Numbered from the stretch's first letter, positions 48,737 to 64,000 are shown. The stretch is DNA of 64,000 nt from Flavobacteriales bacterium (GCA_947496375.1 CANMCY010000002.1:127116-191115); one strand, 5' to 3'. The notes: a model not told the origin generated them from the letters alone. A program made the numbers and translations.

Positions 48737-49886
48737 CCAGATCCTCTATGTTAAAAAGCGCTTTGTATTGTTTATGGAATTTTTCAGGTTGAAAGAATTC
48801 CACTGCAAAATTGTGTGCTGCATGTGACATTTCCGCTTTTTCTTCGAATGACAATTGATGGTAAGCGTTCAATGCTGCTTCAAATACGGCCGGTTCAAGG
48901 GGTAACTCCTCACCTGATTGCCTCTCCTTAAGGCCGGTCCAGGGCGTGTTTTCTCCAATGAAGCAAGGCAAACCATAAGACAGCGCCTCCGCAATGGCAT
49001 GCCCAAAATTCTCCCCTTTGCTACAGGAAACAAACACATGATGGTCTCTGTAAAAACTCCCCATGTCTGATGGTGAAACAGCACGAATATGGGTAACTTT
49101 AACATGATCCGGAAGCTGATTGCACAAATTGTTAAATTGGTTAAAATAGTCTTCGTCCGAATAATCACCTATAACGGTTGCCTCAGCCGGAAATGCCAGA
49201 CGCCCCAGCACATGAACGAGCATAGCGGGATCTTTTTCATCAGAAATGCGGCCAACGGAAAGGATTTTCAACGGCTCTCCATAATCATTCCGTTTCTGAT
49301 ACGAAGGGATACTTCGCGGTATGTTGGCAGCTTCCATTATTTTGGCTTTTTTACCCATTGCTGCCCTTATTTCCTTCGTTTCATCGGGCTGGGTGCTTTG
49401 CCAGTCTATGTTATTAAACCAGCCAAATAATCTTGCCAATGTGAGAAATAGGGTTTTTTTAAACGGCTTTACACTGCGGGCACTGCGGTGAAGCATGCCA
49501 CGTGGTGCTACCACGATTTTCCTGTGTTTGGAGCGGTGCCACCATAAAATGGGATAAATACTGAAGTACCGTGAAAATATGCCCTGTACGTAGAGTACTG
49601 ACTTTTCAGACACATTTTCATTCAGGGTGGAAAACAGGGTTGTGCGAGACAATGTCTTGTTATCCAGGTACATTACCCGGGCCATGCCATTCCAGTCTAT
49701 CCAAATTCCGGTGGCTACCGGCAATGCATTGTCTGAACCATAATCCAGGTTTCCGCAAATAATGGAAAAACTGTAGTGGTCGTGCAGCTGTGTCACCAGA
49801 TTAACCAGTGACTGAATGGGTCCACCTGCCCTGAAAGCGGGGTCGAACCAGTCGCAGACCACCACCACGGAGGTTTTCTCAGTCAT
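48726..49886 (-). CDS. Glycosyltransferase family 4
   Basis: C-terminal GT4 EX7E region (CSKGENFGHAIAEALSYGLPCF). Confidence 0.75.
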   Translation of the reverse strand: MTEKTSVVVVCDWFDPAFRAGGPIQSLVNLVTQLHDHYSFSIICGNLDYGSDNALPVATGIWIDWNGMARVMYLDNKTLSRTTLFSTLNENVSEKSVLYVQGIFSRYFSIYPILWWHRSKHRKIVVAPRGMLHRSARSVKPFKKTLFLTLARLFGWFNNIDWQSTQPDETKEIRAAMGKKAKIMEAANIPRSIPSYQKRNDYGEPLKILSVGRISDEKDPAMLVHVLGRLAFPAEATVIGDYSDEDYFNQFNNLCNQLPDHVKVTHIRAVSPSDMGSFYRDHHVFVSCSKGENFGHAIAEALSYGLPCFIGENTPWTGLKERQSGEELPLEPAVFEAALNAYHQLSFEEKAEMSHAAHNFAVEFFQPEKFHKQYKALFNIEDLDDE

Positions 49887-51726
49887 GTATATTTTGCCTG
49901 TTAATCCAATGACCCAGCACAGCAAGACTCCACGCCTTGTGCCAGTTAGGGTTATCTTTTTGATTCAGCCCTGATATCAGCCCGTCAATGTATGCCGGAT
50001 TTAACAATTCGAAATTCTTGAGCAATTCCAGTCTTTCGGTACAGAAGGGTTTGAGTTCACGGTTCATCCATGCCTGCCAGGGGAAAGAAAATCCCATTTT
50101 GGGTCTGTCCCAGATTTCGCGGGGGAGCAAATCGCCCATCGCATCAATCAGCAACTGTTTGGGTGGTTTCAGGGGTTTAAAATCATCGGGCATGGCCAGC
50201 ATAAATTCCACCAGGTCTTTATCCAAAAACGGCTCCCTGATTTCCAGGCTATGGGCCATTCCCATTTGGTCTGCATCCCGGAGTAAAACGTTCTCCAAGT
50301 AAGTGCTGCACTCGGCAATGGTAATTTCTGAAACCAGTTTTGGACCAAAAGGATCATCCGTTTCGGTTTGAAAATAACGGTGGTAATCGACTCCGGCCTG
50401 TTCGAGCTCCTGCATATTCATGGACTGTCTGAAAACAGGATACATATGCGCCCAGTCCCAGGAAGGCATTCCGGCCAGCATGGCCAGTTTCTGGGCTGCT
50501 TTTCCTTTTAACATCCGGCTGGGCAAAATTGCGGCACTTTTGCGCATTCCGATGGGCAACTTTCCGATGAAGCGGTACTTCTTCAGCTGTTGCAGATATC
50601 CAAAAACAGGGTAACCACCAAATAACTCATCCCCACCAATGCCACTTAACGCAACCGTGATTCCTGCTTTTTTGGTGTATTTGGAAATGATGTATGTATT
50701 CAACCCATCCATTCCGGGATGATCCATGGCATCGAGGGCTTCGGGAATGTCGTGTAAAAACTCATCAGGCCTCAGCAGCACAGGATGGTGGTCGGTACGG
50801 TATTTATCGGCAATCATCTCCGCAAACCGCTTTTCACTAAATTCCTGTTCATCAAAATACACATTGAAGGTTTTCACCTGTCTTTCCGATAGCTTGCTCA
50901 TCACCGCCACGATGGCCGAACTGTCAATTCCTCCGGAAAGAAAAGCCCCCAGCGGAACGTCACTCATCAGGCGTTTTTCTACGGCCTTGAAAATGAGTTC
51001 ACGGGTTTGCTTAATTACCTTCTCATAGGGGCCGGGCAAGGTATATTTATCTCGGCAATCCTCCATGCGCCAGTAGTGGCGAACGCCAAACCCTTTATCA
51101 TCTACAACGGCATAGGAACCTGCAGGCAGCATCTGTACACCGTTCACGATGGTTTCGGGACTGTAAACCGTTTGATACATCAGGTAATTGCCCAGTGCGC
51201 GTCGATTGATGCGGGCTTTAAAATGCCCCGATGCAAGCAGGCCCTTGATTTCACTGCTAAACAGCAGCATATCACCACCGCGGCAGAAGTAGAGGGGTTT
51301 TACTCCCATGCGGTCACGGACCAGCAACAGCTGCTTCTTCTCGCGATCCCAGATGGCCATGGCAAACATCCCATCGAGCATTGGAAACGCCTGAGTGCCA
51401 TGTTCCTCCAGCAGGGCCAGTATCACTTCGGTATCCGTTTCGGTTCGGTATGGGTATTTGCGATGGGTAGCTTTTAATGATTTGTAATTATAAATTTCAC
51501 CGTTGTAAACAATGGTATATCGCCCGCTGGCGGATGTCATGGGTTGGCGGGCTTCTTCGGAAAGATCGATGATACTGAGGCGCCTGTGCCCCAGTCCTAT
51601 GTTTTCATCGGTGAATATACCTGTTGCGTCCGGGCCCCGATGAACCAGTGCATTGTTCATGTGCACCAGCATGTCTGTGGTTCTGAATCTGTCTTTTAAG
51701 CCAAAAATACCGTTAATCCCACACAT
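49879..51726 (-). CDS. Asparagine synthase-like, glutamine-hydrolysing amidotransferase, paralogue 1
   Basis: MCGI N-terminal nucleophile, and PP-loop SGGIDSS. Confidence 0.85.
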   Translation of the reverse strand: MCGINGIFGLKDRFRTTDMLVHMNNALVHRGPDATGIFTDENIGLGHRRLSIIDLSEEARQPMTSASGRYTIVYNGEIYNYKSLKATHRKYPYRTETDTEVILALLEEHGTQAFPMLDGMFAMAIWDREKKQLLLVRDRMGVKPLYFCRGGDMLLFSSEIKGLLASGHFKARINRRALGNYLMYQTVYSPETIVNGVQMLPAGSYAVVDDKGFGVRHYWRMEDCRDKYTLPGPYEKVIKQTRELIFKAVEKRLMSDVPLGAFLSGGIDSSAIVAVMSKLSERQVKTFNVYFDEQEFSEKRFAEMIADKYRTDHHPVLLRPDEFLHDIPEALDAMDHPGMDGLNTYIISKYTKKAGITVALSGIGGDELFGGYPVFGYLQQLKKYRFIGKLPIGMRKSAAILPSRMLKGKAAQKLAMLAGMPSWDWAHMYPVFRQSMNMQELEQAGVDYHRYFQTETDDPFGPKLVSEITIAECSTYLENVLLRDADQMGMAHSLEIREPFLDKDLVEFMLAMPDDFKPLKPPKQLLIDAMGDLLPREIWDRPKMGFSFPWQAWMNRELKPFCTERLELLKNFELLNPAYIDGLISGLNQKDNPNWHKAWSLAVLGHWINRQNIHD

Positions 51727-51759: not shown

Positions 51760-52941
51760 TTGAACATTGTATTCGCTACTGACGGAATTTACCCTTTTGT
51801 GCTGGGAGGCATGCAAAAGCATGCTGCCTACATTATCCGGCACCTGGCAGGAACCGAGCACAAGGTGGATGTGCTGATCCCTAACCATGGCGTCAGCAAT
51901 GCCGAAGAGGCGGAATCCCGATTTTGGGGAAATGTGCGACCTGACAACATCCGATTTCATGTAATTCCTTATCCAAAAACGCCCCGATTTCCGGGTCATT
52001 ATGTGGTGGCAAGTTATTTGTACTCCCGAAGGATTACAAACTATTTTTCCCATAAAATATCAACCATCGACATCCTGTTTGGGAAGGGATATACATTGTG
52101 GCACTGGCTGGCCCGACAAAAAAGACCTCAAATTCCCGTCATTGTTCAGTTACACGGCCTTGAAATGTTTCAGCCGGCGTTTGCCATCAAAGAAATGCTG
52201 CACAAAATGCTGATGCGAATTCCTGCGGTTCCTATCATCCGTTTGACGGATTATATCTTTTCTTACGGTGGTGAGGTAAAGGAAATTTTACGCAAGCAGG
52301 GCAAATCTGAAGATTGTATTTTCGAACAATATGGGGCTGTAGACGATTTTTGGCTGTATCCTGAACCCTTTCCCAAGGAAAATGGAATGATTCGCAAGTT
52401 TTTGTTTGTGGCAAGAAACGAATACCGAAAAGGATATCATTTACTGCATGAAACCCTACAGGAGCTTGTTACGGACAATGAAACATTTGAGATTGACATT
52501 GTAGGCGAGTTACCCAAACAACTGGAGCTGCAAGACCCGAGGATTCGCTATCACGGCAACCTATCCGCTGAGGCACTGAAATCCTTAAAAGATCGTTGTG
52601 AGGTATTGCTGTTACCAAGTTTGTCGGAAGGTTTTCCAACCATCATTATAGAATCAATGGCCAGGGGAATATGCATTGCTGCCTCAGAAGTGGGGGCGGT
52701 TACCAAGGTTATTGACAAAGACACCGGGTGGTTGTTGCAACCCGGAAGCAGCAGATCGCTCAAAGACACCATGAAGGCCATCATCAGAACACCGGAACCT
52801 GATCTTCATCGCAAGCAAATGGCCTGTTATCAAAAAGTATTGCATAATTTTCGATGGGAATCTACGGTAAATCAATTAGTTTCGCATTTACAATCAGCGG
52901 CTCATGATTATCGGGAACGGATTACTCGCCAACAGTCTTAG
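51760..52941 (+). CDS. Glycosyltransferase family 4, with a TTG start
   Basis: GT4 N-terminus DGIYPFVLGGMQKHAAY, and the C-terminal motif LLPSLSEGFPTIIIESMARG. Confidence 0.75.
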   Translation: MNIVFATDGIYPFVLGGMQKHAAYIIRHLAGTEHKVDVLIPNHGVSNAEEAESRFWGNVRPDNIRFHVIPYPKTPRFPGHYVVASYLYSRRITNYFSHKISTIDILFGKGYTLWHWLARQKRPQIPVIVQLHGLEMFQPAFAIKEMLHKMLMRIPAVPIIRLTDYIFSYGGEVKEILRKQGKSEDCIFEQYGAVDDFWLYPEPFPKENGMIRKFLFVARNEYRKGYHLLHETLQELVTDNETFEIDIVGELPKQLELQDPRIRYHGNLSAEALKSLKDRCEVLLLPSLSEGFPTIIIESMARGICIAASEVGAVTKVIDKDTGWLLQPGSSRSLKDTMKAIIRTPEPDLHRKQMACYQKVLHNFRWESTVNQLVSHLQSAAHDYRERITRQQS

Positions 52942-53590
52942 GGATATTGACCGGGAATCGGTGACCTTTTTTTGCTCCGGTGTTTCAGATTCGGGTGAAA
53001 CCAATTCATTGGCATTTGAGCGGGAACTTTCTTTGCTACGCATGCAGGACAGTCATGAGCTGCTGTGTTATTTTTCCACCGTCAGTATTTTTAATCCTTC
53101 CCGGAAGAACAACCCATACATTCGTCATAAGGTGAATATGGAGGAGGAGATTCGGACACGTTTTCCCAAGCATCTTATCATACGATTGCCCAATATGATG
53201 GGGGAAGGTGGCAATGCTTCCAATTTGTTTCCTTATTTCATGCGCAGCATAGCAGAAGGGAAAATCGTTACCATTTTTGACAATACCCACCGCGAACTCA
53301 TGGAGGTTCAGCTGCTGCCAAGCATTGTGGATGCGCTGTTAAACTTGGGTTTCACAGGAAGCATCAATGCGGGTTTTGGAAATGCCCCCAAGGTAAAAGA
53401 CATTTACCTGCACATGTGCCAATTACTGGAGGCAACACCCAACATGAAAATAGAACAAGGGGAAGACGCCTATGAAGTAGATTACTCCGAATTTACCACC
53501 CTGATGAAATCTGCCGGTGTGGCCCCAATGGGTACATGGCAGGAACGGGTGGGGCGTTATGTGTTATCTTACAAAAGCACGGTCAGTTAG
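52904..53590 (+). CDS. Short, atypical SDR-like or NAD(P)-binding protein of 228 aa with a degenerate Rossmann motif
   Basis: N-terminal IGNGLLA (GxGxxA). A YxxxK-like motif (PYIRHK) follows an S-rich strand. It overlaps the upstream GT gene by 38 nt. Confidence 0.4.
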   Translation: MIIGNGLLANSLRDIDRESVTFFCSGVSDSGETNSLAFERELSLLRMQDSHELLCYFSTVSIFNPSRKNNPYIRHKVNMEEEIRTRFPKHLIIRLPNMMGEGGNASNLFPYFMRSIAEGKIVTIFDNTHRELMEVQLLPSIVDALLNLGFTGSINAGFGNAPKVKDIYLHMCQLLEATPNMKIEQGEDAYEVDYSEFTTLMKSAGVAPMGTWQERVGRYVLSYKSTVS

Positions 53591-56065: not shown

Positions 56066-57228
56066 GCCACCCAGGTATGTTCATCCAGAATTTTGTTACG
56101 GAAACATCTACCCATTTCAAGAGAATCTACGGTGTTTTGCAGCACATATAACAAGGCCTCCTCTAGGTCTTCCGCATTGTCTGAAACCAGCCATCCATGT
56201 TTTTTGTGTTCCATCACATCCCGCAAGGGTCCCTTATCGGGTGCCACGATGGGCACTCCAGTAAGACCATATTCAAATATTTTAATAGGGGAACCATACC
56301 AGTTGGAAGATGGCATTACTGCCACATCAAAGGATCTGATATAATTCATCACCTCGATGTGGGGAATTTTACCCGTAAATGTATACGAACCTGTTGGCAA
56401 GATTTTGTCCGCCAGGGCCTGCAACGCTTCTCTGATGACACCCTCCCCCACAATCATAAGATGGGCATTGGGTAGCATAGCTACTACACCTGCGAATGCC
56501 TCAATCAGTCCGTCCACCCCGTGGTAGGGAAAAAGACTTCCTACAAATCCGATGATTTGTGTTTCAGCGGCAAGGCCGGCGCGAATTTTTGTTACCTCCT
56601 CTGGGTTGAATTGCTCCTTTTCAGGGTTAATGGCATTGGGCGCCACATGGATGGGTAATTGACATTGGTATTTTGATTGAAGATACTCCTTCATGGCTGT
56701 AGAAACCGCAATCACATGCGAGGTTCTGTTAAGCTTATTACGTTCCTTCCAGTGGCCTATAAACCGCAAAATATCAGGCCCTTCAAAAGCCGCCATTTCT
56801 TCCACCACAGGACTGTTTACCTCCAGCACATGTTTGATCCCATGACGGGTTGCCATATTGACCCCGCTATCCTGAAGATATTCACCACGTTCATAAATCA
56901 AATCCGGCTTGAAAGTATGAATAGCTGTTTCAAGCTGCCTACCAGCCCTTCTGTCATGCATCAACAGACGGATATCTTTCAGTGCATTCCAAAGAAAAAG
57001 GGGTAAAAAACGCTTTATAATTGAAACACTGCCGGCCTTTTGTGTTAAACCATCGATGTGATTTTTAACTGAAGCAGTTTCTGTGCCTCCCATCACCACG
57101 GGCAAAACCTCATGACCCAATTGGCGAAAAGCCGCTATGCTCTCACGCTGATGCGTACTATAACCTACCTCACTCACAATATCGTGGGTGGGATGGGGCG
57201 AATAGTAAATAATCCTGAGTTTTTTCAA
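56023..57228 (-). CDS. Glycosyltransferase family 4
   Basis: VMPSSNWYGSPIKIFEYGLTGVPIVA is a GT4 C-terminal motif. Confidence 0.75.
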   Translation of the reverse strand: MKKLRIIYYSPHPTHDIVSEVGYSTHQRESIAAFRQLGHEVLPVVMGGTETASVKNHIDGLTQKAGSVSIIKRFLPLFLWNALKDIRLLMHDRRAGRQLETAIHTFKPDLIYERGEYLQDSGVNMATRHGIKHVLEVNSPVVEEMAAFEGPDILRFIGHWKERNKLNRTSHVIAVSTAMKEYLQSKYQCQLPIHVAPNAINPEKEQFNPEEVTKIRAGLAAETQIIGFVGSLFPYHGVDGLIEAFAGVVAMLPNAHLMIVGEGVIREALQALADKILPTGSYTFTGKIPHIEVMNYIRSFDVAVMPSSNWYGSPIKIFEYGLTGVPIVAPDKGPLRDVMEHKKHGWLVSDNAEDLEEALLYVLQNTVDSLEMGRCFRNKILDEHTWVAQASGIFSAIEAEG

Positions 57229-58217
57229 GATAACGAATAACCCGCCGCACGCATTACATCTTCGCGGGTGTAGGATTTCATGGGAATGTTGATCTCTGTT
57301 TTGGCAAATGTTTCGGGGATGTCTTCTCCCTGAATCAGTTTTTGCAGCCAGGGTTTATAGTAGGAAGGGGTTTGAGGGCGGTTGAGAACTTCCTGCAGGT
57401 ATTGTATGTCTGCAATCCCTTTTTCCTGAATAAAACGACAAACGGCTTGTATGCTGTAGCTGTCTATTTCCGGACCCACCGCACTACGGGTTGGAGCAAA
57501 ATATTCATTTTCATCAATACCCGTGAAGGCATCGCCATCAGGATACCACTGAACGGTATTTGCCACTGAAATGCCAAACTGTTTTTCCATTCCCAGCAGC
57601 TGTATGGCTTTCCTAAGAGGAGTTTTAAATGCTTTCAGCAATGGGTTGTGACGCAACGAATCTGTAGCGCGCTTTTTATCGGGTGTCCATAGCTGCAGGG
57701 TGGCACTGTACGTTTCTGGAAGATATACGATGTGTGGTTCCCAACTGTCGATGGTATGCACAGGATATTGCTGCTGGGTAAAATGCTTACTTACCCTGAG
57801 TTTCGTTTTGCCGCCCTCAACCTGGATATTTTTATCAAACAGCATGGTTTCATAACCGGAACCCAGAATGGCTGCAGTTGTCAGTATATAATTGTTGTGA
57901 TGATGTATGCAGTGAGCAGCAATTCCTTTGACGTGTGTAGGATGCGAAGCAAAGAAATGGATTTTCATAACCATATCTTCATTTTCGTAGATATACAGAA
58001 AGGGTATGTTATACTGGCTCCAGGTTTGTTTGAGATACCCTTCATCATTAAAATTTCTGCGAACAACCTGTTTCAAAAATTCTGCATCACTGCCCATTTG
58101 TTGCAACAACGGACCGGCCTTCTCATGAAGCAAATTGCGGTTTTCATGCGTTCTGTTTAGTTCAAGTATTTGTTGGATATAGTGGTGCTGAGAAAGCTGT
58201 TCCTGATTCATTTGCAT
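57225..58217 (-). CDS. Hypothetical protein of 330 aa with a His-rich motif. It may be a metal-dependent enzyme.
   Basis: HFFASHPTHVKGIAAHCIHHHNNY cluster. I recognise no family. It overlaps the downstream GT4 gene by 4 nt. Confidence 0.45.
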   Translation of the reverse strand: MQMNQEQLSQHHYIQQILELNRTHENRNLLHEKAGPLLQQMGSDAEFLKQVVRRNFNDEGYLKQTWSQYNIPFLYIYENEDMVMKIHFFASHPTHVKGIAAHCIHHHNNYILTTAAILGSGYETMLFDKNIQVEGGKTKLRVSKHFTQQQYPVHTIDSWEPHIVYLPETYSATLQLWTPDKKRATDSLRHNPLLKAFKTPLRKAIQLLGMEKQFGISVANTVQWYPDGDAFTGIDENEYFAPTRSAVGPEIDSYSIQAVCRFIQEKGIADIQYLQEVLNRPQTPSYYKPWLQKLIQGEDIPETFAKTEINIPMKSYTREDVMRAAGYSLS

Positions 58218-58295: not shown

Positions 58296-58565
58296 TTAAG
58301 GAAACGACCTGTAAATGTCTTTTCTATGGGCTACAATAATTAGTCGGATAGTTGTTTCTGCTATCTTTTCCAGACCAATCCTGTAGGCTCCTAATCGAAT
58401 TCTATAATACGTTTTAAAACCACTTAGTTTTTTAAGATTTTTAATTTCGTGGAATGATTTGGCATTTTCCAGATCAGCAATTATTGTTTCAATTTTAGGT
58501 AATATGCTTTTGTCCTTGACTTTGTCAATAGATTTTTCAAATGATTTGTCAAATTCAACAATCAC
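58296..58565 (-). CDS. Type II toxin, RelE/ParE family
   Basis: YYRIRLGAYRIGL....IVAHRKDIY is the RelE/ParE signature. The gene is AT-rich. Confidence 0.8.
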   Translation of the reverse strand: MIVEFDKSFEKSIDKVKDKSILPKIETIIADLENAKSFHEIKNLKKLSGFKTYYRIRLGAYRIGLEKIAETTIRLIIVAHRKDIYRSFP

Positions 58566-58759
58566 TTGGCCTTCAGCTTCTTCAAAATGCTGTTTTTGGA
58601 AACAGTTGTACCTGTTTTAACATTATCCATCAGAGTTCCAAGCATCAAATCTTCAAATTGCGTATCTGACAAAGAAATAACATCACCGCCTAAATGTTTG
58701 GCCAACTGTGCCAAAATCTTACTGTTTTTATTATCGGTTTTGATGAGAAGCGTGCTCAT
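58562..58759 (-). CDS. Putative cognate antitoxin of 65 aa
   Basis: It lies immediately upstream of the toxin gene with a 4-nt overlap, and is small and helical. I recognise no family. Confidence 0.5.
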   Translation of the reverse strand: MSTLLIKTDNKNSKILAQLAKHLGGDVISLSDTQFEDLMLGTLMDNVKTGTTVSKNSILKKLKAK

Positions 58760-58827: not shown

Positions 58828-59874
58828 TTAAAACCAGGCATCCTGATAATAACGAACAAACCGCAAACCCCAGCTGGGTTCAGGAATAAGCGGTTTTACG
58901 TCAATTCCAATGGCTTGTTGTACTGCAAGTAACGGCAAATTGATACCCATTCCCAAAGCAGTAGTGGTACTTCCCTGCAATCGTGGATTGATTTCCAGTA
59001 TGCGAAATTCGCCGTTTTTATTGCGTTTAACCTGCAATCCATTGGGGCCATGCAGCCCTGTTGCCTTGAAAACGGCCGTTGCGTAATCAATAATTTCTTT
59101 ATTGTTTTCAAACTCACCTGCAACGCTGATACCATTGTTCATGCTGATCCGTTTCCGAGGTAATATTATCAAAGGCTCCCCGATGTCCAGTAGGGCATCT
59201 ACAGTATATTCCTCTCCCGGTAGGTATTCCATTACCAGCATCGTGGGCAGGGTGGCATCACCAAAAATGTGAAGTACATTTTCCAGGGTTGTATGGGTAT
59301 TGTTGGGCTTCTGCTCAAAAAAAGATGACAAAGAACCTGCAGATGCATCCAGAATGCGCATTCCCCTGCTTCCATTGGAAAGGGACGGTTTAATGCACAC
59401 TTTTTTTTGCGGATAACCCAGTTTTTTTGCGAACATTTCAATTTCCGCGGCGCTGTGGGCGGTATAACATTCAGCAACGGGAATATTCGCGGTGATTAGG
59501 GTTTGAATCAGCAACGCCTTGTCATTGGCCATATGCAGTTTATCCGAACCTGAAACCACCACGGATGTGCCGATGGCCCTGAAATCAGCTACATGTTGGG
59601 ATAATAACTCAAGTTCGCGGGTTACCAGGGGTAACAGCACCTGAATTTGCTTTTCCCTACAAATCCGTAGCATTTCTCCAACAAATTCAGGTTGAGAAGC
59701 AGCTGGAATCTGGATAAATTCCGCATGCACAGCACGTCCTGAAGCATACGGATTGGCATCGGCTATGATGAGTTCGATTTGCGGATTTTGCCTAAGGGCA
59801 TGCATTATGCCGGGTCCACCGGGAGCTCCGGCGCCCGTCATTAAAACACGAATGGGTTGTGATGTGCTCATCAA
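58828..59874 (-). CDS. ATP-grasp domain protein, a putative amino-acid:amine ligase
   Basis: A pre-ATP-grasp N-domain (RVLMTGAGAPGG). The central region KPSLSNGSRGMRIL. E/N residues of the ATP-grasp C-domain (EINPRLQGS). Confidence 0.7.
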   Translation of the reverse strand: MMSTSQPIRVLMTGAGAPGGPGIMHALRQNPQIELIIADANPYASGRAVHAEFIQIPAASQPEFVGEMLRICREKQIQVLLPLVTRELELLSQHVADFRAIGTSVVVSGSDKLHMANDKALLIQTLITANIPVAECYTAHSAAEIEMFAKKLGYPQKKVCIKPSLSNGSRGMRILDASAGSLSSFFEQKPNNTHTTLENVLHIFGDATLPTMLVMEYLPGEEYTVDALLDIGEPLIILPRKRISMNNGISVAGEFENNKEIIDYATAVFKATGLHGPNGLQVKRNKNGEFRILEINPRLQGSTTTALGMGINLPLLAVQQAIGIDVKPLIPEPSWGLRFVRYYQDAWF

Positions 59875-60506
59875 TAAATCATGCGTACCACCTCAAACAC
59901 CTCAGCCAGGGGCAGTCCCACTTGAACCCCACGCACTTTGGCCAAACTTTGAATGAAATCAGGTTTCATGTAGGGGCGGTGTGCCTGGCTTTTGTAGCAA
60001 GCCAACGCGCGCATTTTAGCGTCTACATGTTTTTGCTCCAGGGAATAAAACAGGGTGGTTTTAAATTCAAAATTATTCCAAGGCAATTCATAACAAAGCA
60101 ACGTCGAAAATTTAAAAGCCCGCACAGCTTCTTGGGCAATGGTATAATGATCCTGGTGAATGTCATTAACACTCGGCACAAAAACCACATCCGGTTTAAT
60201 TTTATTCCGTAAATTCAGAATATCATCCAGAATTTCCTGGCGGTGAAAATTGAAAGTGCGTACATCGTAATCAAACAGGTGCAGATTTTCTGCAGGAATA
60301 CCCAATTCCCGGGTAGATGCCTTAATTTCCTGAACAAGCACATCTTCCGGAAACCCTTCCAGAACACTGTGTCTGCAAGCCGAAAATGCGGCTATATGGA
60401 CCTGGTTGCCTTGTTCCAGCAGCAGTTTTATGGTTCCGCCACAGCCCAGTTCGGCATCGTCGGTGTGGGGTGAAAGAATGAGGATGGATTTGTTTGTAAA
60501 TTTCAA
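59871..60506 (-). CDS. PIG-L / LmbE-family N-acetylglucosaminyl deacetylase
   Basis: ILSPHTDDAELGCGGTI (HxDD...G) and the HQDH motif. Confidence 0.85.
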   Translation of the reverse strand: MKFTNKSILILSPHTDDAELGCGGTIKLLLEQGNQVHIAAFSACRHSVLEGFPEDVLVQEIKASTRELGIPAENLHLFDYDVRTFNFHRQEILDDILNLRNKIKPDVVFVPSVNDIHQDHYTIAQEAVRAFKFSTLLCYELPWNNFEFKTTLFYSLEQKHVDAKMRALACYKSQAHRPYMKPDFIQSLAKVRGVQVGLPLAEVFEVVRMIY

Positions 60507-60510
60507 TTTT

Positions 60511-61761
60511 TTAATTTGGTTTTAGGTAAGGTATAATTTTCTTTGTTAAGTTTTCAATGCTATATTCATTAATGTCCAATTCCTTGTTAAAAGTCAATTC
60601 ATGACTAATTAACTCTAAAAGACGTTTTTTTATTGTTCCTTTATAAATGCCAAAACCAATCTTATTTTTTTCAACAAAATCAGTAGTTGGTCCTGGCTCA
60701 GAAAAAACAATAATAGGTTTTCTTAATGCTATTGCCTCATAGAATTTTGTGCTTTTTGAGTATTTTAAATCATCAGTTAAAAATAACATAGAATAATCAG
60801 CATTTAAGGAATCAACAATGGCATCATTAAATTTCTTTATACCACTATATCTAATAATCTGGTGATTATGTGTTATTTCTTGAAACCATGACGGAATCTC
60901 TCCCATAAAATTAAATTCCAATCTATTATAAATTTCAATGTTTTCAACCCTAATTTGGTCTAAAGCCTGCACAAATTCTGTAAAAACAATTTCAGTTTTA
61001 TTATACAGGGTACCTGAAAAGCTAAATATTATTTTATCCGTTTTTTTTAAATCCTCTTCTAAAACATGTATTTTATTATAGTCATGCGGATCAAACCCAT
61101 TTGGCAGCGTTACACATTTTTCATGCCCTGCAGATAATAGATGCTTAAAATGATTTTTCATTTCTTCAGAAACAGCAAATACAGTGTCATATTCTCTCAA
61201 AACAAACTTTTCTAGGTCTTGTTCATATTTCAATGATTCATCATTTAAACCGGAAAAACCAAATGAAGTTTGATTATTAGACCATGGGTCCCGAAAATCA
61301 ACAATGAAATTAACGTGTGGGAAATATTTTTTTACTTCAATAATTTCAGCAGCCATGTGAAACGGTCCTACTGTAACTAAAATATTGTTTACGCCATTAT
61401 TTATTTCCTTTTTTATAAGAGGTAATATTTTTTTTCCAAAACCTATAGAATAGTCATAAAAGTTTTGATTCTTGTAATTGCTTTTTACCTTAATTAATGC
61501 TAATCTATACCTGATTTTTTGAAATACCGTATCAGGCCGAGTCATTAAGATGGTTGGATAAGTCATTTTTTCATATAAAACAGGAATTTCAGATTGTAAA
61601 TCATTATTCCATTGGCTATCCGACAACCCGTCTTTTTTGGCTGCTATAACCCTACAATCAACCCCATTTTTATTTAAGTACTTTGAGAATTTAACCCATC
61701 TTCTTCCACCAATTCCGGAATATGGTGGAAAAGTAAAGCTCACAATGAGTAGGCGTATCAT
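60511..61761 (-). CDS. Glycosyltransferase (GT4-like). The gene is strongly AT-rich.
   Basis: N-terminal FPPYSGIGGRRW, which matches the GT4 N-terminal sugar-donor pocket. Its GC content is far below the flanking genes. Confidence 0.65.
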   Translation of the reverse strand: MIRLLIVSFTFPPYSGIGGRRWVKFSKYLNKNGVDCRVIAAKKDGLSDSQWNNDLQSEIPVLYEKMTYPTILMTRPDTVFQKIRYRLALIKVKSNYKNQNFYDYSIGFGKKILPLIKKEINNGVNNILVTVGPFHMAAEIIEVKKYFPHVNFIVDFRDPWSNNQTSFGFSGLNDESLKYEQDLEKFVLREYDTVFAVSEEMKNHFKHLLSAGHEKCVTLPNGFDPHDYNKIHVLEEDLKKTDKIIFSFSGTLYNKTEIVFTEFVQALDQIRVENIEIYNRLEFNFMGEIPSWFQEITHNHQIIRYSGIKKFNDAIVDSLNADYSMLFLTDDLKYSKSTKFYEAIALRKPIIVFSEPGPTTDFVEKNKIGFGIYKGTIKKRLLELISHELTFNKELDINEYSIENLTKKIIPYLKPN

Positions 61762-61849
61762 TTAAATATGTTTTTCAATTTACTTACAAAAGGAGTCAAT
61801 AAATATCCGTAATTTTCGGGCTTTTTCAAAAAATCCTCTTAACAACCAC

Positions 61850-63748
61850 TCATTTCAAAAGTTGTGCGTTTATCTCTTGCCAAATCCTTTGGCTTTTTTT
61901 GAGATCAAATGTCTCATTCGGATTTGTTTTCTTTAATTCTGAGAGTTCTGAAGAAGGGAGAACCATCAGGTCTTCCTTGAAATTGGTTGAACTCAACATA
62001 TCCATCATCCATTCTTTTAGCGGCCCATTTGCCCAATGCTCAATGGGGCTGCCGATTCCCACCTTAAACGTTCTTTTTCTGATTCCTTCAGCCATTCGTC
62101 CTTTCATGGCTTCCCTTAAAATACGTTTATTAAAGCCACCGCCAATTTTTGCTTCTGTGGGCAACGAGAACAAATATGTTACCAAACGCCAGTCCATAAA
62201 TGGCATGCGTATTTCTACCCCATGCATCATACCCGCCCTATCAAAATTGCCTAAAATGGTGGGAAGTGAATTAACAAACGTTTCAAAATACAACAGCCGC
62301 TGCGGATAGGGTAGTTGACCCAATTGATAATCTTCACCCAAGCCCAGCAGCATGGGATGGTTTTCCAGATTGTCTTTGGGCCTGTTCTTTAGATACGACC
62401 CCAATTTGTATTTTAATCTTTTGATAGGGTTTTTTGCAATTTCCCTTAATACGTTCAAATTACTATAAACCCTTTCCCTTTCAGACTCGGCATAAGTTTC
62501 CACAATAATATCAGAGAGTGACAATGCCAACTTGGTTGAGCCTTCAGAAAAATAATGATGATAAAGACGGTACAACATATCGCGATAACCATACATCATT
62601 TCATCTACCGCATGACCATCAAGTGATACAGAGATGCCATTTTTCTTCATGCCCTCATAAATGCCGGCTATGGAAGTAATAGGAGCAGTTGAAATTGCAT
62701 CAAACATCATGGTATCCGCGGCCACCCTATCCGGAAGATTGTTTTCATTTTGCTCCAGATAGGTTACAGGTCCACCAGTAAATGCAACCGCTTCCTCCGC
62801 ATATTTTCGTTCATCCATGGCCAAACCAGGAAATGTAGCCACAAATGCCTGTTGACTGTTTTTGTGTGAACGTTCAAATGACTCTGTATTTAGCAAATGA
62901 TGAACCATGGAGTAAACACTGCTGGAATCCAATCCCCCGCTAAGTGCAGTTCCTATGGGAACATCACTGATTAATCTAAGACGACAAGCATCCTTGAACA
63001 ATTCATAAAAACATTCCGTTTGTTCCCGGAAGGATTTGGGAATGTTGTTATGAAGATGGTTTGAAATGTGCCACCAACGTTTTTGCTGCAATGGTTTATT
63101 CGCGGAAACCACCGCATAATGCCCGGGAAGAATCTGTTTTATGTTTTGAAAAATGGAGTAGCCTGACCCATCTATTGGGATTCCGGCAACCTGTAAATCC
63201 AGATACGTTTTATTTAAACTGCGCTGAAATCCCTCCAGATGTTTAAACGCCCGTGTTTCACTGGCAAAAGCAATTATTTTACCCGGTATATGCAAATAAT
63301 ACAAGGGCTTTATCCCAAAACGATCCCTGCATAGGATGAGTTCTTTTCGCAATTCATCCCAAATGGCCATGGCCCACATCCCGTTAAATTTATCAAGAGA
63401 CTGAATTCCCCATTTATCCCAAGCAGCTAAAATCACCTCTGTATCCGTATTCGACTTAAATTCATAGCCCAATGTTTCTAATTCTGCTTTTATTTCACCA
63501 AAATTGAAAACTTCCCCATTGTAGGTGATGGTATATCTTCCATTGTCAGATAACATAGGCTGTTTACCCAAATCAGACAAATCGAGAATGGACAAACGCC
63601 TGTGTCCAAGGCCCAGGGTGTTGTTTTCTAAAAGTGTATAGCCGCCGCCATCAGGTCCTCTGTTGGCCATAGAATCCGTAAACGTTTTTAGTTTTTGCTC
63701 TGTAACGGCAGTGCCGTCAAGATGCCATATTCCTGCAATTCCGCACAT
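61850..63748 (-). CDS. Asparagine synthase-like, glutamine-hydrolysing amidotransferase, paralogue 2
   Basis: MCGIAGIW N-terminal nucleophile, and PP-loop SGGLDSS. Confidence 0.85.
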   Translation of the reverse strand: MCGIAGIWHLDGTAVTEQKLKTFTDSMANRGPDGGGYTLLENNTLGLGHRRLSILDLSDLGKQPMLSDNGRYTITYNGEVFNFGEIKAELETLGYEFKSNTDTEVILAAWDKWGIQSLDKFNGMWAMAIWDELRKELILCRDRFGIKPLYYLHIPGKIIAFASETRAFKHLEGFQRSLNKTYLDLQVAGIPIDGSGYSIFQNIKQILPGHYAVVSANKPLQQKRWWHISNHLHNNIPKSFREQTECFYELFKDACRLRLISDVPIGTALSGGLDSSSVYSMVHHLLNTESFERSHKNSQQAFVATFPGLAMDERKYAEEAVAFTGGPVTYLEQNENNLPDRVAADTMMFDAISTAPITSIAGIYEGMKKNGISVSLDGHAVDEMMYGYRDMLYRLYHHYFSEGSTKLALSLSDIIVETYAESERERVYSNLNVLREIAKNPIKRLKYKLGSYLKNRPKDNLENHPMLLGLGEDYQLGQLPYPQRLLYFETFVNSLPTILGNFDRAGMMHGVEIRMPFMDWRLVTYLFSLPTEAKIGGGFNKRILREAMKGRMAEGIRKRTFKVGIGSPIEHWANGPLKEWMMDMLSSTNFKEDLMVLPSSELSELKKTNPNETFDLKKSQRIWQEINAQLLK

Positions 63749-64000
63749 GTATTAATTTTTATATTTATGGCTAACAGTTATTTTAATCTTATGCATAATT
63801 TACAGTTTTTTTATAATTATGTTAATTATATTAATTTGTTTTCTTTATCAAATAACTATATTAACGTTCAACACAAGAATGCATATTAAAAATTAGAATA
63901 TTTTGGGTAAAAAAAATTTCAAGAGTAAATAAAATCTAACTTTTTTATGAAATTGTCCTCGTTATAAACACATTTTGAGTCCATACTCGATGAAGGAATT

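Follow-up and report, generated by a model that had tools for sequence, protein, structure and literature searches.

Gene content of the locus

We analysed a stretch of 64,000 nucleotides from a Flavobacteriales bacterium (GCA_947496375.1, CANMCY010000002.1:127116-191115), here called the window, and focused on three neighbouring genes that encode a glycosyltransferase (GT), a deacetylase of the PIG-L family and an ATP-grasp ligase. A first-pass annotation, made from the sequence alone, had taken these genes for a translationally coupled triad that was acquired horizontally as one unit and that follows the logic of mycothiol or bacillithiol biosynthesis. All three are present on the minus strand in the list of open reading frames (ORFs), with exactly the coordinates annotated before. 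GT416 (60511-61761, minus strand) is a divergent GT-B (GT4-like) glycosyltransferase of 416 amino acids (aa), recognised by Glyco_transf_4 and by hhalign. It is followed by a PIG-L/LmbE-family de-N-acetylase of 211 aa with a TTG start (59871-60506, minus strand; PF02585) and by an ATP-grasp carboxylate-amine ligase of 348 aa, also with a TTG start (58828-59874, minus strand; ATPgrasp_Ter, PylC-like_N and ATP-grasp_3). Thus, the family labels GT4-like, PIG-L and ATP-grasp hold, as all three proteins have Pfam matches above the cut-offs.

The spacing between the genes was confirmed from the sequence. A 4-nt spacer, AAAA at 60507-60510, lies between the GT416 stop codon TAA and the TTG of the PIG-L gene. 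The PIG-L stop codon TGA lies within TTGATGA, which also holds the start of the ATP-grasp gene; the overlap is 4 nt with the TTG start or 1 nt with an alternative in-frame ATG start at 59871. The same gene order is found in independent contigs (L001, L002 and L083-L086) at a protein identity of 57-95%, and the arrangement is therefore not due to chance. Judging from the spacing, the genes may be translationally coupled. Scans for promoters and terminators and a search for the Bacteroidetes -7 motif gave counts at or below the shuffle expectation, so that operon boundaries could not be called.

The three genes are part of a surface-glycan locus that extends from ~48.7 kb to past the end of the window. 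Along the plus strand, the order is a GT, an AsnB-like gene, a GT, a short SDR-like gene, a GT, a Wzy_C protein, the glycosyltransferase GT401, a conserved 330-aa protein (hyp330), a toxin-antitoxin pair, the ATP-grasp gene, the PIG-L gene, GT416 and a second AsnB-like gene. The genes past the window end are seen on the public contig L168, which matches the window at 100% identity over 13.5 kb: a 417-aa protein without a Pfam match, NeuB, a CMP-transferase (CTP_transf_3), a 2-hydroxyacid dehydrogenase, a further unannotated protein, a GT, a DegT aminotransferase and an amidohydrolase.

Protein families and proposed reaction

The PIG-L protein matches PF02585 with 66.3 bits (cut-off 28.2) at residues 9-130, and the full profile is covered. 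The motifs P13-H14-x-D16-D17 and H117-Q118-D119-H120 are invariant across 18 aligned family members; we take their residues to serve in metal binding and catalysis, as in the known structures of MshB, BshB and TT1542. Among solved structures, TT1542, diacetylchitobiose deacetylases and BshB are closest (E 5e-9 to 5e-5). Characterised PIG-L enzymes (PIG-L, MshB, BshB and BtrD) deacetylate N-acetylglucosamine (GlcNAc) glycosides that were made by a glycosyltransferase.

The ATP-grasp protein matches ATPgrasp_Ter with 98 bits (cut-off 29.1), PylC-like_N with 48.8 bits (cut-off 27) and ATP-grasp_3 with 47.3 bits (cut-off 23.2). The 'carbamoyl-phosphate-synthase-like' PRK12767 models give 131 bits, which is below their cut-offs. 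An AlphaFold2 (AF2) model has a pLDDT of 92.4. When this model was compared to the PDB with Foldseek, 774 matches reached E <= 0.001; the 50 that were listed are ATP-grasp enzymes without exception. The ranking is led by 2pn1 (E 7e-24) and RizA (2.6e-18), followed by biotin carboxylases, PurK and BL00235; RizA is matched with a TM of 0.61 and 14-17% identity, and the biotin carboxylases are nearly equal to it in score. In the profile search, 2pn1 and carbamoyl-phosphate synthetase rank before 4wd3 (RizA, E 1.6e-8) and 3vot (BL00235, 4.8e-7). Among the characterised proteins, the L-amino-acid ligases thus appear to be the nearest relatives. Five residues are invariant in 19 homologues (K161, E215, E293, N295 and R297), and these presumably bind the nucleotide and Mg, as is established for the fold. 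A word-indexed search returned more than 2,600 ATP-grasp homologues. An affinity to RimK or to D-Ala ligases (Ddl), which the first-pass annotation had named as evidence against a role on sugar amines, was rejected, as the RimK model gives 17 bits against a cut-off of 143 and the Ddl model 19 bits against 243.

Based on these families and on the conservation described below, we propose that the core of the system is a two-enzyme tailoring module, PIG-L plus ATP-grasp, that makes an N-aminoacyl (N-acyl) amino sugar in a surface glycan; we give this proposal an even chance of being correct. Substrate, step order, acid and product are what we infer here. The module would act on the cytoplasmic side. 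PIG-L would deacetylate the nitrogen of an N-acetyl-amino-sugar residue; going by other members of the family, this would be an N-acetylhexosamine glycoside that a glycosyltransferase had put in place before, probably on a lipid-linked repeat unit. The ATP-grasp enzyme would then activate a free carboxylic acid as acyl phosphate and couple it to the sugar amine that PIG-L has freed. An amino acid is the most probable choice of acid; the nearest characterised relatives of the ligase appear to be L-amino-acid ligases, and its N-terminal domain is PylC-like. In related loci, the acid might be a phosphorylated one that is later trimmed by a HAD or PHP phosphatase. The Wzy-type surface glycan of the surrounding locus would thereby gain an amino sugar with an N-aminoacyl (N-acyl) group.

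GT416 belongs to an exchangeable cassette

To compare the locus with its relatives, blastn was used against three contigs (L001, L002 and L003). We observed 85-90% identity through the ATP-grasp and PIG-L genes, and the homology ends at window positions 60510, 60517 and 60505, respectively, which is where GT416 stops and PIG-L starts. Protein identity to the relatives is 95% for PIG-L (the L001 and L002 copies), ~90% for ATP-grasp and 92-94% for hyp330, and 29-31% for GT416 and its positional counterparts. Furthermore, the G+C content (GC) changes from ~0.30 to ~0.45 at the same position: it is 0.296 in GT416 and 0.447 and 0.465 in PIG-L and ATP-grasp, respectively, and the window has 0.452. 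The 4-nt spacer at 60507-60510 is thus a breakpoint of both recombination and composition, with a variable cassette on one side and the conserved part of the locus on the other.

The low-GC stretch (0.29-0.42) is ~9.6 kb long; it reaches from an upstream GT up to and including GT416 and stops at PIG-L (L168 1800-11400; window 60511-64000 onward). Its genes are the GT, the 2-hydroxyacid dehydrogenase, the CMP-transferase, NeuB, the 417-aa protein, the second AsnB-like gene (AsnB2) and GT416. NeuB and the CMP-transferase are present in every version of the cassette seen, and the accessory genes differ: at the same junction, some relatives carry NeuB cassettes with Fe-ADH and DegT, others with SIS, AP_endonuc_2, Aminotran_4 and SDR. 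This variation looks like serotype-type exchange, in which cassettes are swapped at a fixed junction beside conserved tailoring genes. The AT-rich GT416 is the last gene of the exchangeable cassette, and PIG-L and ATP-grasp belong to the conserved backbone. As both breakpoints fall exactly at the GT416/PIG-L junction, the three genes do not form one evolutionary unit. We thus reject the single horizontally acquired triad of the first-pass annotation; only the upstream cassette lies in the low-GC island.

For GT416 itself, Pfam matches only the N-terminal half (Glyco_transf_4, 33.4 bits against a cut-off of 28.5), and the Pfam search gave no Glycos_transf_1 match for the C-terminal half. This C-terminal half aligns with the GT4 C-domain of GT401 from the same locus (hhalign 93.8%), in a profile comparison only. 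Within the GT416 family, the N-terminal motif FPPxxGxGGxR and a DxRDPW motif are conserved, K339 is invariant and E342 nearly so; matches to the PDB are weak (E 0.003). The mean identity within the family is 32% in the acceptor-side half and 23% in the C-terminal donor-side half. Taken together, the better conserved acceptor half and the place of the gene within the variable cassette hint at an acceptor that is conserved and at donors that differ between strains. Furthermore, GT416 is the last gene of a cassette that also encodes a CMP-activated ulosonic-acid pathway; it is thus more likely that GT416 here joins a strain-variable sugar to a conserved part of the glycan than that it merely supplies GlcNAc.

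The cassette also raises the idea that the pair exchanges the N-acyl groups of its nonulosonic or ulosonic acid, free or CMP-linked, before the transfer by GT416. NeuB, CTP_transf_3 and an aminotransferase are encoded just upstream of GT416-PIG-L-ATP-grasp in L168 and in three other contigs (L001, L083 and L084), and the strong divergence of the donor-side half of GT416 would be consistent with such a donor. Bacterial nonulosonic acids carry varied N-acyl groups, which fits as well. Tannerella provides examples (PMC5378307). However, the pair is 90-95% conserved while the cassette including its GT has been replaced. The pair also occurs in many loci without NeuB, namely in compact modules (L122, L158 and L006) and in PIG-L-ATP-grasp-HAD operons of Sphingobacteriales. 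In addition, PIG-L enzymes are not known to use nucleotide sugars as substrates. We consider this exchange distinctly unlikely.

Co-conservation of PIG-L and ATP-grasp

The proposed tailoring module requires two genes, and we estimated how often they occur together. In a scan centred on ATP-grasp with one genome per species, 80 loci were returned and 81 loci were analysed. PIG-L is located immediately upstream of ATP-grasp in ~30 of the 81 genome loci. A neighbour-joining tree showed that the ATP-grasp copies without PIG-L, all but four, form one derived monophyletic clade from Chitinophagaceae. Outside of this clade, ~31 of 35 ATP-grasp loci carry PIG-L. The two genes are thus an old, tightly linked and widespread pair. 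In the Chitinophagaceae clade (L010-L081, ~46 loci; for instance L043, Terrimonas ferruginea, and L077, Flavisolibacter longurius), the solo ATP-grasp gene has a fixed position in a housekeeping region, between a UbiD-like decarboxylase and a gene of the TraB/GumN family, and no PIG-L, HAD or GT416-family gene was found within 10 kb.

The glycosyltransferase shows a different pattern. With a hidden Markov model (HMM) of the GT416 family at a score of at least 140 bits, we detected a member in 13 of 45 loci with PIG-L and ATP-grasp, in 4 of 14 with PIG-L and an LpxD-like gene, in 2 of 12 with PIG-L only and in none of the 46 with ATP-grasp only. These counts show that the GT tracks PIG-L, which it accompanies in ~29% of loci, rather than ATP-grasp. 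The conserved core of the proposed triad is the pair of PIG-L and ATP-grasp.

Gene order around the pair is shuffled among relatives, while the gene set is kept. The order is GT-PIG-L-ATP-grasp-HAD in L006, GT-ATP-grasp-HAD-PIG-L in L158, PIG-L-ATP-grasp-HAD with a reversed GT in L027, and PIG-L-GT-hyp330-GT401-ATP-grasp in L046; L023 also belongs to these loci. This matters for another view of the locus, namely that there is no shared chemistry and that the three enzymes independently modify different residues of the glycan. Glycan loci do pack unrelated tailoring genes tightly, and PIG-L is found without ATP-grasp as well as ATP-grasp without PIG-L. However, the pair is conserved across classes of Bacteroidota and in a haloarchaeon, with overlapping reading frames, and the gene set survives the shuffling of its order. 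Moreover, independent enzymes do not explain why the partners of PIG-L exclude each other (see below). We thus regard independent action as highly improbable.

Proposed alternative enzymes in the position after PIG-L

We also performed the reciprocal scan of metagenomes, centred on PIG-L, which returned 80 loci at 50-80% identity; 65 of these have enough flanking sequence. Among the 52 loci of at least 6 kb, ATP-grasp is present in 20, an LpxD-like N-acyltransferase in 14 and a WbqC protein in 6. The three partners are mutually exclusive: none of the 52 loci has two of them (one-sided Fisher test, p = 2.7e-4 for ATP-grasp versus LpxD-like and 1.8e-6 for ATP-grasp versus either). The LpxD-like proteins are hexapeptide N-acyltransferases and pass the cut-off of the NF002060 subfamily (207 bits) with 252 and 208 bits. 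One of the three enzymes is thereby a member of a family whose reaction is the acylation of a sugar amine.

We read ATP-grasp, LpxD-like and WbqC as putative alternative enzymes for one slot after deacetylation. Their mutual exclusivity supports the proposed order of deacetylation followed by re-acylation. WbqC has no known function; its presence in the slot after PIG-L hints that it modifies a sugar amine. A literature search on WbqC returned nothing functional.

Two further observations concern these partners. PIG-L orthologues with 50-64% identity are directly followed by an LpxD-like gene in 16 loci (L087, L089, L092, L094, L096, L101 and others). WbqC follows PIG-L directly in 4 loci and is found within the locus in 6; L090, L128, L143 and L146 are loci of this type.

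Phosphatase partners and haloarchaeal relatives

A HAD hydrolase follows ATP-grasp in 18 genome loci. This frequent phosphatase partner suggests that a phosphorylated intermediate is involved in many lineages. A further observation from Sphingobacteriales is F20, a multi-pass protein of 491 aa without a Pfam match, which is encoded divergently beside PIG-L-ATP-grasp-HAD in 10 loci.

When plasmids were searched with tblastn, homologues with 32-37% identity were found on haloarchaeal megaplasmids (module stretches L170 8369-10718, L171 5053-8751 and L169 8956-12106). The plasmid of Halobaculum sp. XH14 encodes PIG-L, ATP-grasp and a PHP phosphoesterase with 4-nt overlaps, and this PIG-L scores 232 bits against the family profile. 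In Haloarcula sp. GH36, the genes are a CE4 polysaccharide deacetylase, a GT, ATP-grasp and a HAD, so that CE4 stands in place of PIG-L. The roles of deacetylase and phosphatase have thus been kept through replacement by non-homologous proteins, which is good evidence that they take part in the same chemistry as the ligase.

The phosphatase allows for another view of the ligase. In Campylobacter jejuni, the ATP-grasp enzyme Cj1438C amidates glucuronic acid with serinol-P or ethanolamine-P, after which the HAD enzyme Cj1435 removes the phosphate (PMC11800397, PMC11800379). Our ATP-grasp might likewise use an amine or amino acid to amidate a uronic or ulosonic acid of the glycan at its carboxylate and leave the finishing to a HAD; PIG-L would then be a deacetylase with a task of its own that only happens to share the operon. 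The two systems are alike in that an ATP-grasp enzyme forms an amide on a growing surface polysaccharide before a HAD acts, and the adjacency of ATP-grasp and HAD is common among relatives of the window protein, with HAD or PHP after ATP-grasp in many loci. Furthermore, the window locus has two AsnB-like amidotransferases and the NeuB/CMP-transferase cassette, and Haloferax homologues adjoin two nucleotide-sugar dehydrogenases and an AsnB-related gene.

Several findings speak against an amidation of the sugar carboxylate. Cj1438C, which activates the sugar's own carboxylate, is a TupA-like ATP-grasp (PMC11800379), whereas the window protein is ATPgrasp_Ter/PylC-like and paired with a deacetylase, and no TupA-like match was found among its 7 Pfam families at E <= 0.01. 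We detected no nucleotide-sugar dehydrogenase among the genes of the window locus that were examined, and only 1 of 45 bacterial PIG-L+ATP-grasp loci has an NDP-sugar dehydrogenase within its flanks, which argues against a uronate substrate. Without a TupA-like match and without uronate-forming genes nearby, we rejected membership in the Cj1438C type of amidoligases. Amidation also leaves unexplained both the exclusivity with LpxD-like N-acyltransferases and the deacetylase that is kept through non-orthologous replacement. We therefore consider this explanation unlikely.

Other observations weigh against our own proposal of a PIG-L/ATP-grasp module that re-acylates a sugar amine. Neither family clade contains a characterised enzyme, and the closest structure to the ligase, 2pn1, has no assigned function. 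The linkage of the two genes is incomplete: ~46 Chitinophagaceae loci have ATP-grasp without a nearby PIG-L, and in the PIG-L-centred scan ATP-grasp lies within 8 kb in only 22 of 65 loci and directly downstream in 12 of 65. The sister loci L093 and L118 keep GT416-PIG-L-hyp330-GT401 and have no ATP-grasp, so that PIG-L can work without it. In Haloferax, ATP-grasp lies beside GT39, GlmS and the AsnB-related gene, downstream of the two nucleotide-sugar dehydrogenases, and PIG-L is absent. The window contains no HAD, and a phosphatase partner is also used by the uronate-amidation system Cj1438C/Cj1435 (PMC11800397). Finally, the sugar could be the neighbouring nonulosonic acid instead of a hexosamine.

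Comparison to known pathways

The first-pass annotation had proposed that an N-acetyl group is removed and that an acid is then ligated to the freed amine, as in mycothiol (MshA/MshA2/MshB/MshC/MshD) and bacillithiol (BshA/BshB/BshC) biosynthesis. This order of steps is consistent with the linkage of the pair, the exclusivity of the partners and the exchange of PIG-L for CE4 in a haloarchaeon; GT416 as part of one unit and an orthology to Msh or Bsh proteins are not supported. The module resembles these pathways in that, after a GT4-type GT and a PIG-L-family deacetylase, an amino acid would be ligated to the freed amine of glucosamine (GlcN); among the relatives of the module there are also sets with a phosphatase and, in one case (L006), a GNAT. 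It differs in that the ligase is an ATP-grasp and not the CysRS-like MshC or BshC, and in that the setting is a Wzy-type glycan locus and not a small-molecule operon. Membership in either pathway was rejected on equivalog scores: the best NCBIfam match of PIG-L is BshB1, with 69.5 bits far under the cut-off of 182.5, BshB2 gives 28.3 bits against 195.25, and GT416 has no NCBIfam match at E <= 0.01, hence none to BshA or MshA. None of the three proteins is thus an Msh or Bsh orthologue by the curated NCBIfam scores.

A soluble product would nevertheless fit some of the relatives. Several compact sets of a GT416-family gene, PIG-L, ATP-grasp and HAD occur amid housekeeping genes (L122, L158 and L006), in L122 and L158 without Wzx/Wzy, and L006 adds a GNAT, so that its set recalls MshA, MshA2, MshB, MshC and MshD. 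Such a set might make an aminoacyl-glucosaminide (a thiol like mycothiol or bacillithiol, or a compatible solute), with a GT acting on a phosphorylated acceptor, followed by phosphatase, deacetylase and ligase; that BshB1 is the best NCBIfam match of PIG-L points in the same direction. However, the BshB1, BshA and MshA scores are far under the equivalog cut-offs, and in the window the surroundings of the pair are a Wzy/GT locus that lacks a phosphatase. Furthermore, a YfhO-like GT-C membrane protein (~820-840 aa) is present in six of the compact sets (for instance L006 4975-13507, L099 3034-9643 and L027 39-6136), which points to a target in the envelope. We consider a soluble product very unlikely. 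The compact modules with this membrane protein lie outside of Wzy loci, and that of L006 contains, besides the GNAT, an AsnB-like gene.

We also consider a broader version of our proposal. The GT416-family GT, PIG-L or CE4, ATP-grasp and HAD or PHP might constitute an uncharacterised pathway of Bacteroidota and haloarchaea, in which an aminoacylated glucosamine is built on a lipid carrier and, in many genomes, passed to a GT-C transferase (YfhO-like, GT39 or F20) that decorates the envelope. It would be a surface-charge system similar to Arn that uses an ATP-grasp and not a tRNA- or CoA-dependent acyl donor. We put this forward as a speculative extension that is rather unlikely to hold in full.

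Three other systems are informative for the proposed tailoring module. In lipid A biosynthesis, LpxC and LpxD remove an N-acetyl group and re-acylate the same nitrogen, as we propose here, and an LpxD-like gene accompanies PIG-L in the 14 of 52 loci mentioned above, never together with ATP-grasp. However, LpxC is not a PIG-L enzyme, and LpxD uses an acyl group bound to acyl carrier protein, whereas ATP-grasp uses a free acid and ATP.

A cluster for the core oligosaccharide of Pseudomonas contains the GT PA5001, the PIG-L-family protein PA5002 and the GNAT PA5003, and the core bears N-alanyl groups (PMC8005017). By this description, a surface-glycan cluster with an N-aminoacyl product contains, side by side, a GT, a PIG-L protein and a putative enzyme for the acylation, although the third gene has a GNAT fold and not an ATP-grasp fold. 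We suggest, by analogy, that PA5001-PA5003 may be linked to the alanyl group of the core.

The third comparison is to RizA (4wd3), BL00235 (3vot), PylC and 2pn1, which are the best matches among solved structures by sequence profile and by structure. The ligases among them couple an activated amino-acid carboxylate to an amine, as would the window enzyme. The identity is 14-21%, however, and their amine acceptors are amino acids and not sugars.

A full-text search of the literature returned no paper that combines ATP-grasp with LmbE or PIG-L. Deacetylation and re-acylation of a sugar nitrogen are already known, and what would be new is an ATP-grasp as the acylating enzyme. N-acyl groups of amino sugars shape the charge, the antigenicity and the recognition by phages and the immune system of bacterial and archaeal surfaces, and the routes that place amino-acid or hydroxy-acid substituents on sugar nitrogens are mostly unknown. 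If our proposal is correct, there is a widespread ATP-dependent re-acylation of sugar amines that needs neither tRNA nor CoA and is an alternative to LpxD-like acyltransferases in the same slot. It would also provide a rule for reading glycan loci, namely to look for PIG-L together with ATP-grasp, LpxD-like or WbqC.

Other genes of the locus

Lastly, we describe the remaining genes around the pair. Two AsnB-like glutamine amidotransferases are encoded in the locus, at 49879-51726 and 61850-63748, both on the minus strand. The latter, AsnB2 (632 aa), lies within the variable cassette and matches Asn_synthase with 178 bits, GATase_7 with 145 bits and TIGR01536 with 346 bits against a cut-off of 267. 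AsnB-like genes adjoin the pair in L006, L046, L067 and L131 and are thus occasional and not consistent partners. These neighbours could amidate a remaining carboxylate.

The conserved protein hyp330 (57225-58217, minus strand; 330 aa) has a 3-His cupin fold and no assigned function, and its gene shares 4 nt with that of GT401 downstream. The protein is among the conserved ones of the locus, yet it is not tied to ATP-grasp. We considered a pairing of the ATP-grasp as cysteine ligase with the cupin as thiol dioxygenase and rejected it, since hyp330 homologues accompany a GT401-like gene without PIG-L/ATP-grasp or directly follow PIG-L without ATP-grasp.

Between hyp330 and ATP-grasp lies a toxin-antitoxin pair (58296-58759, minus strand) with a GC of 0.325, called as a 65-aa gene (58562-58759) and an 89-aa ParE/RelE-like toxin (58296-58565), the latter with a weak ParE_toxin match on the identical contig L168. 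L002 lacks the pair and has a gap of 52 bp in its place, and L001 matches it only in part; the pair is outside of the pathway. A protein of 228 aa, encoded at 52904-53590 (plus strand), aligns with the NAD-dependent epimerase/dehydratase profile in the C-terminal part of the profile only, with 21 bits, and may be a truncated or degenerate SDR; it is kept in all relatives of the locus.

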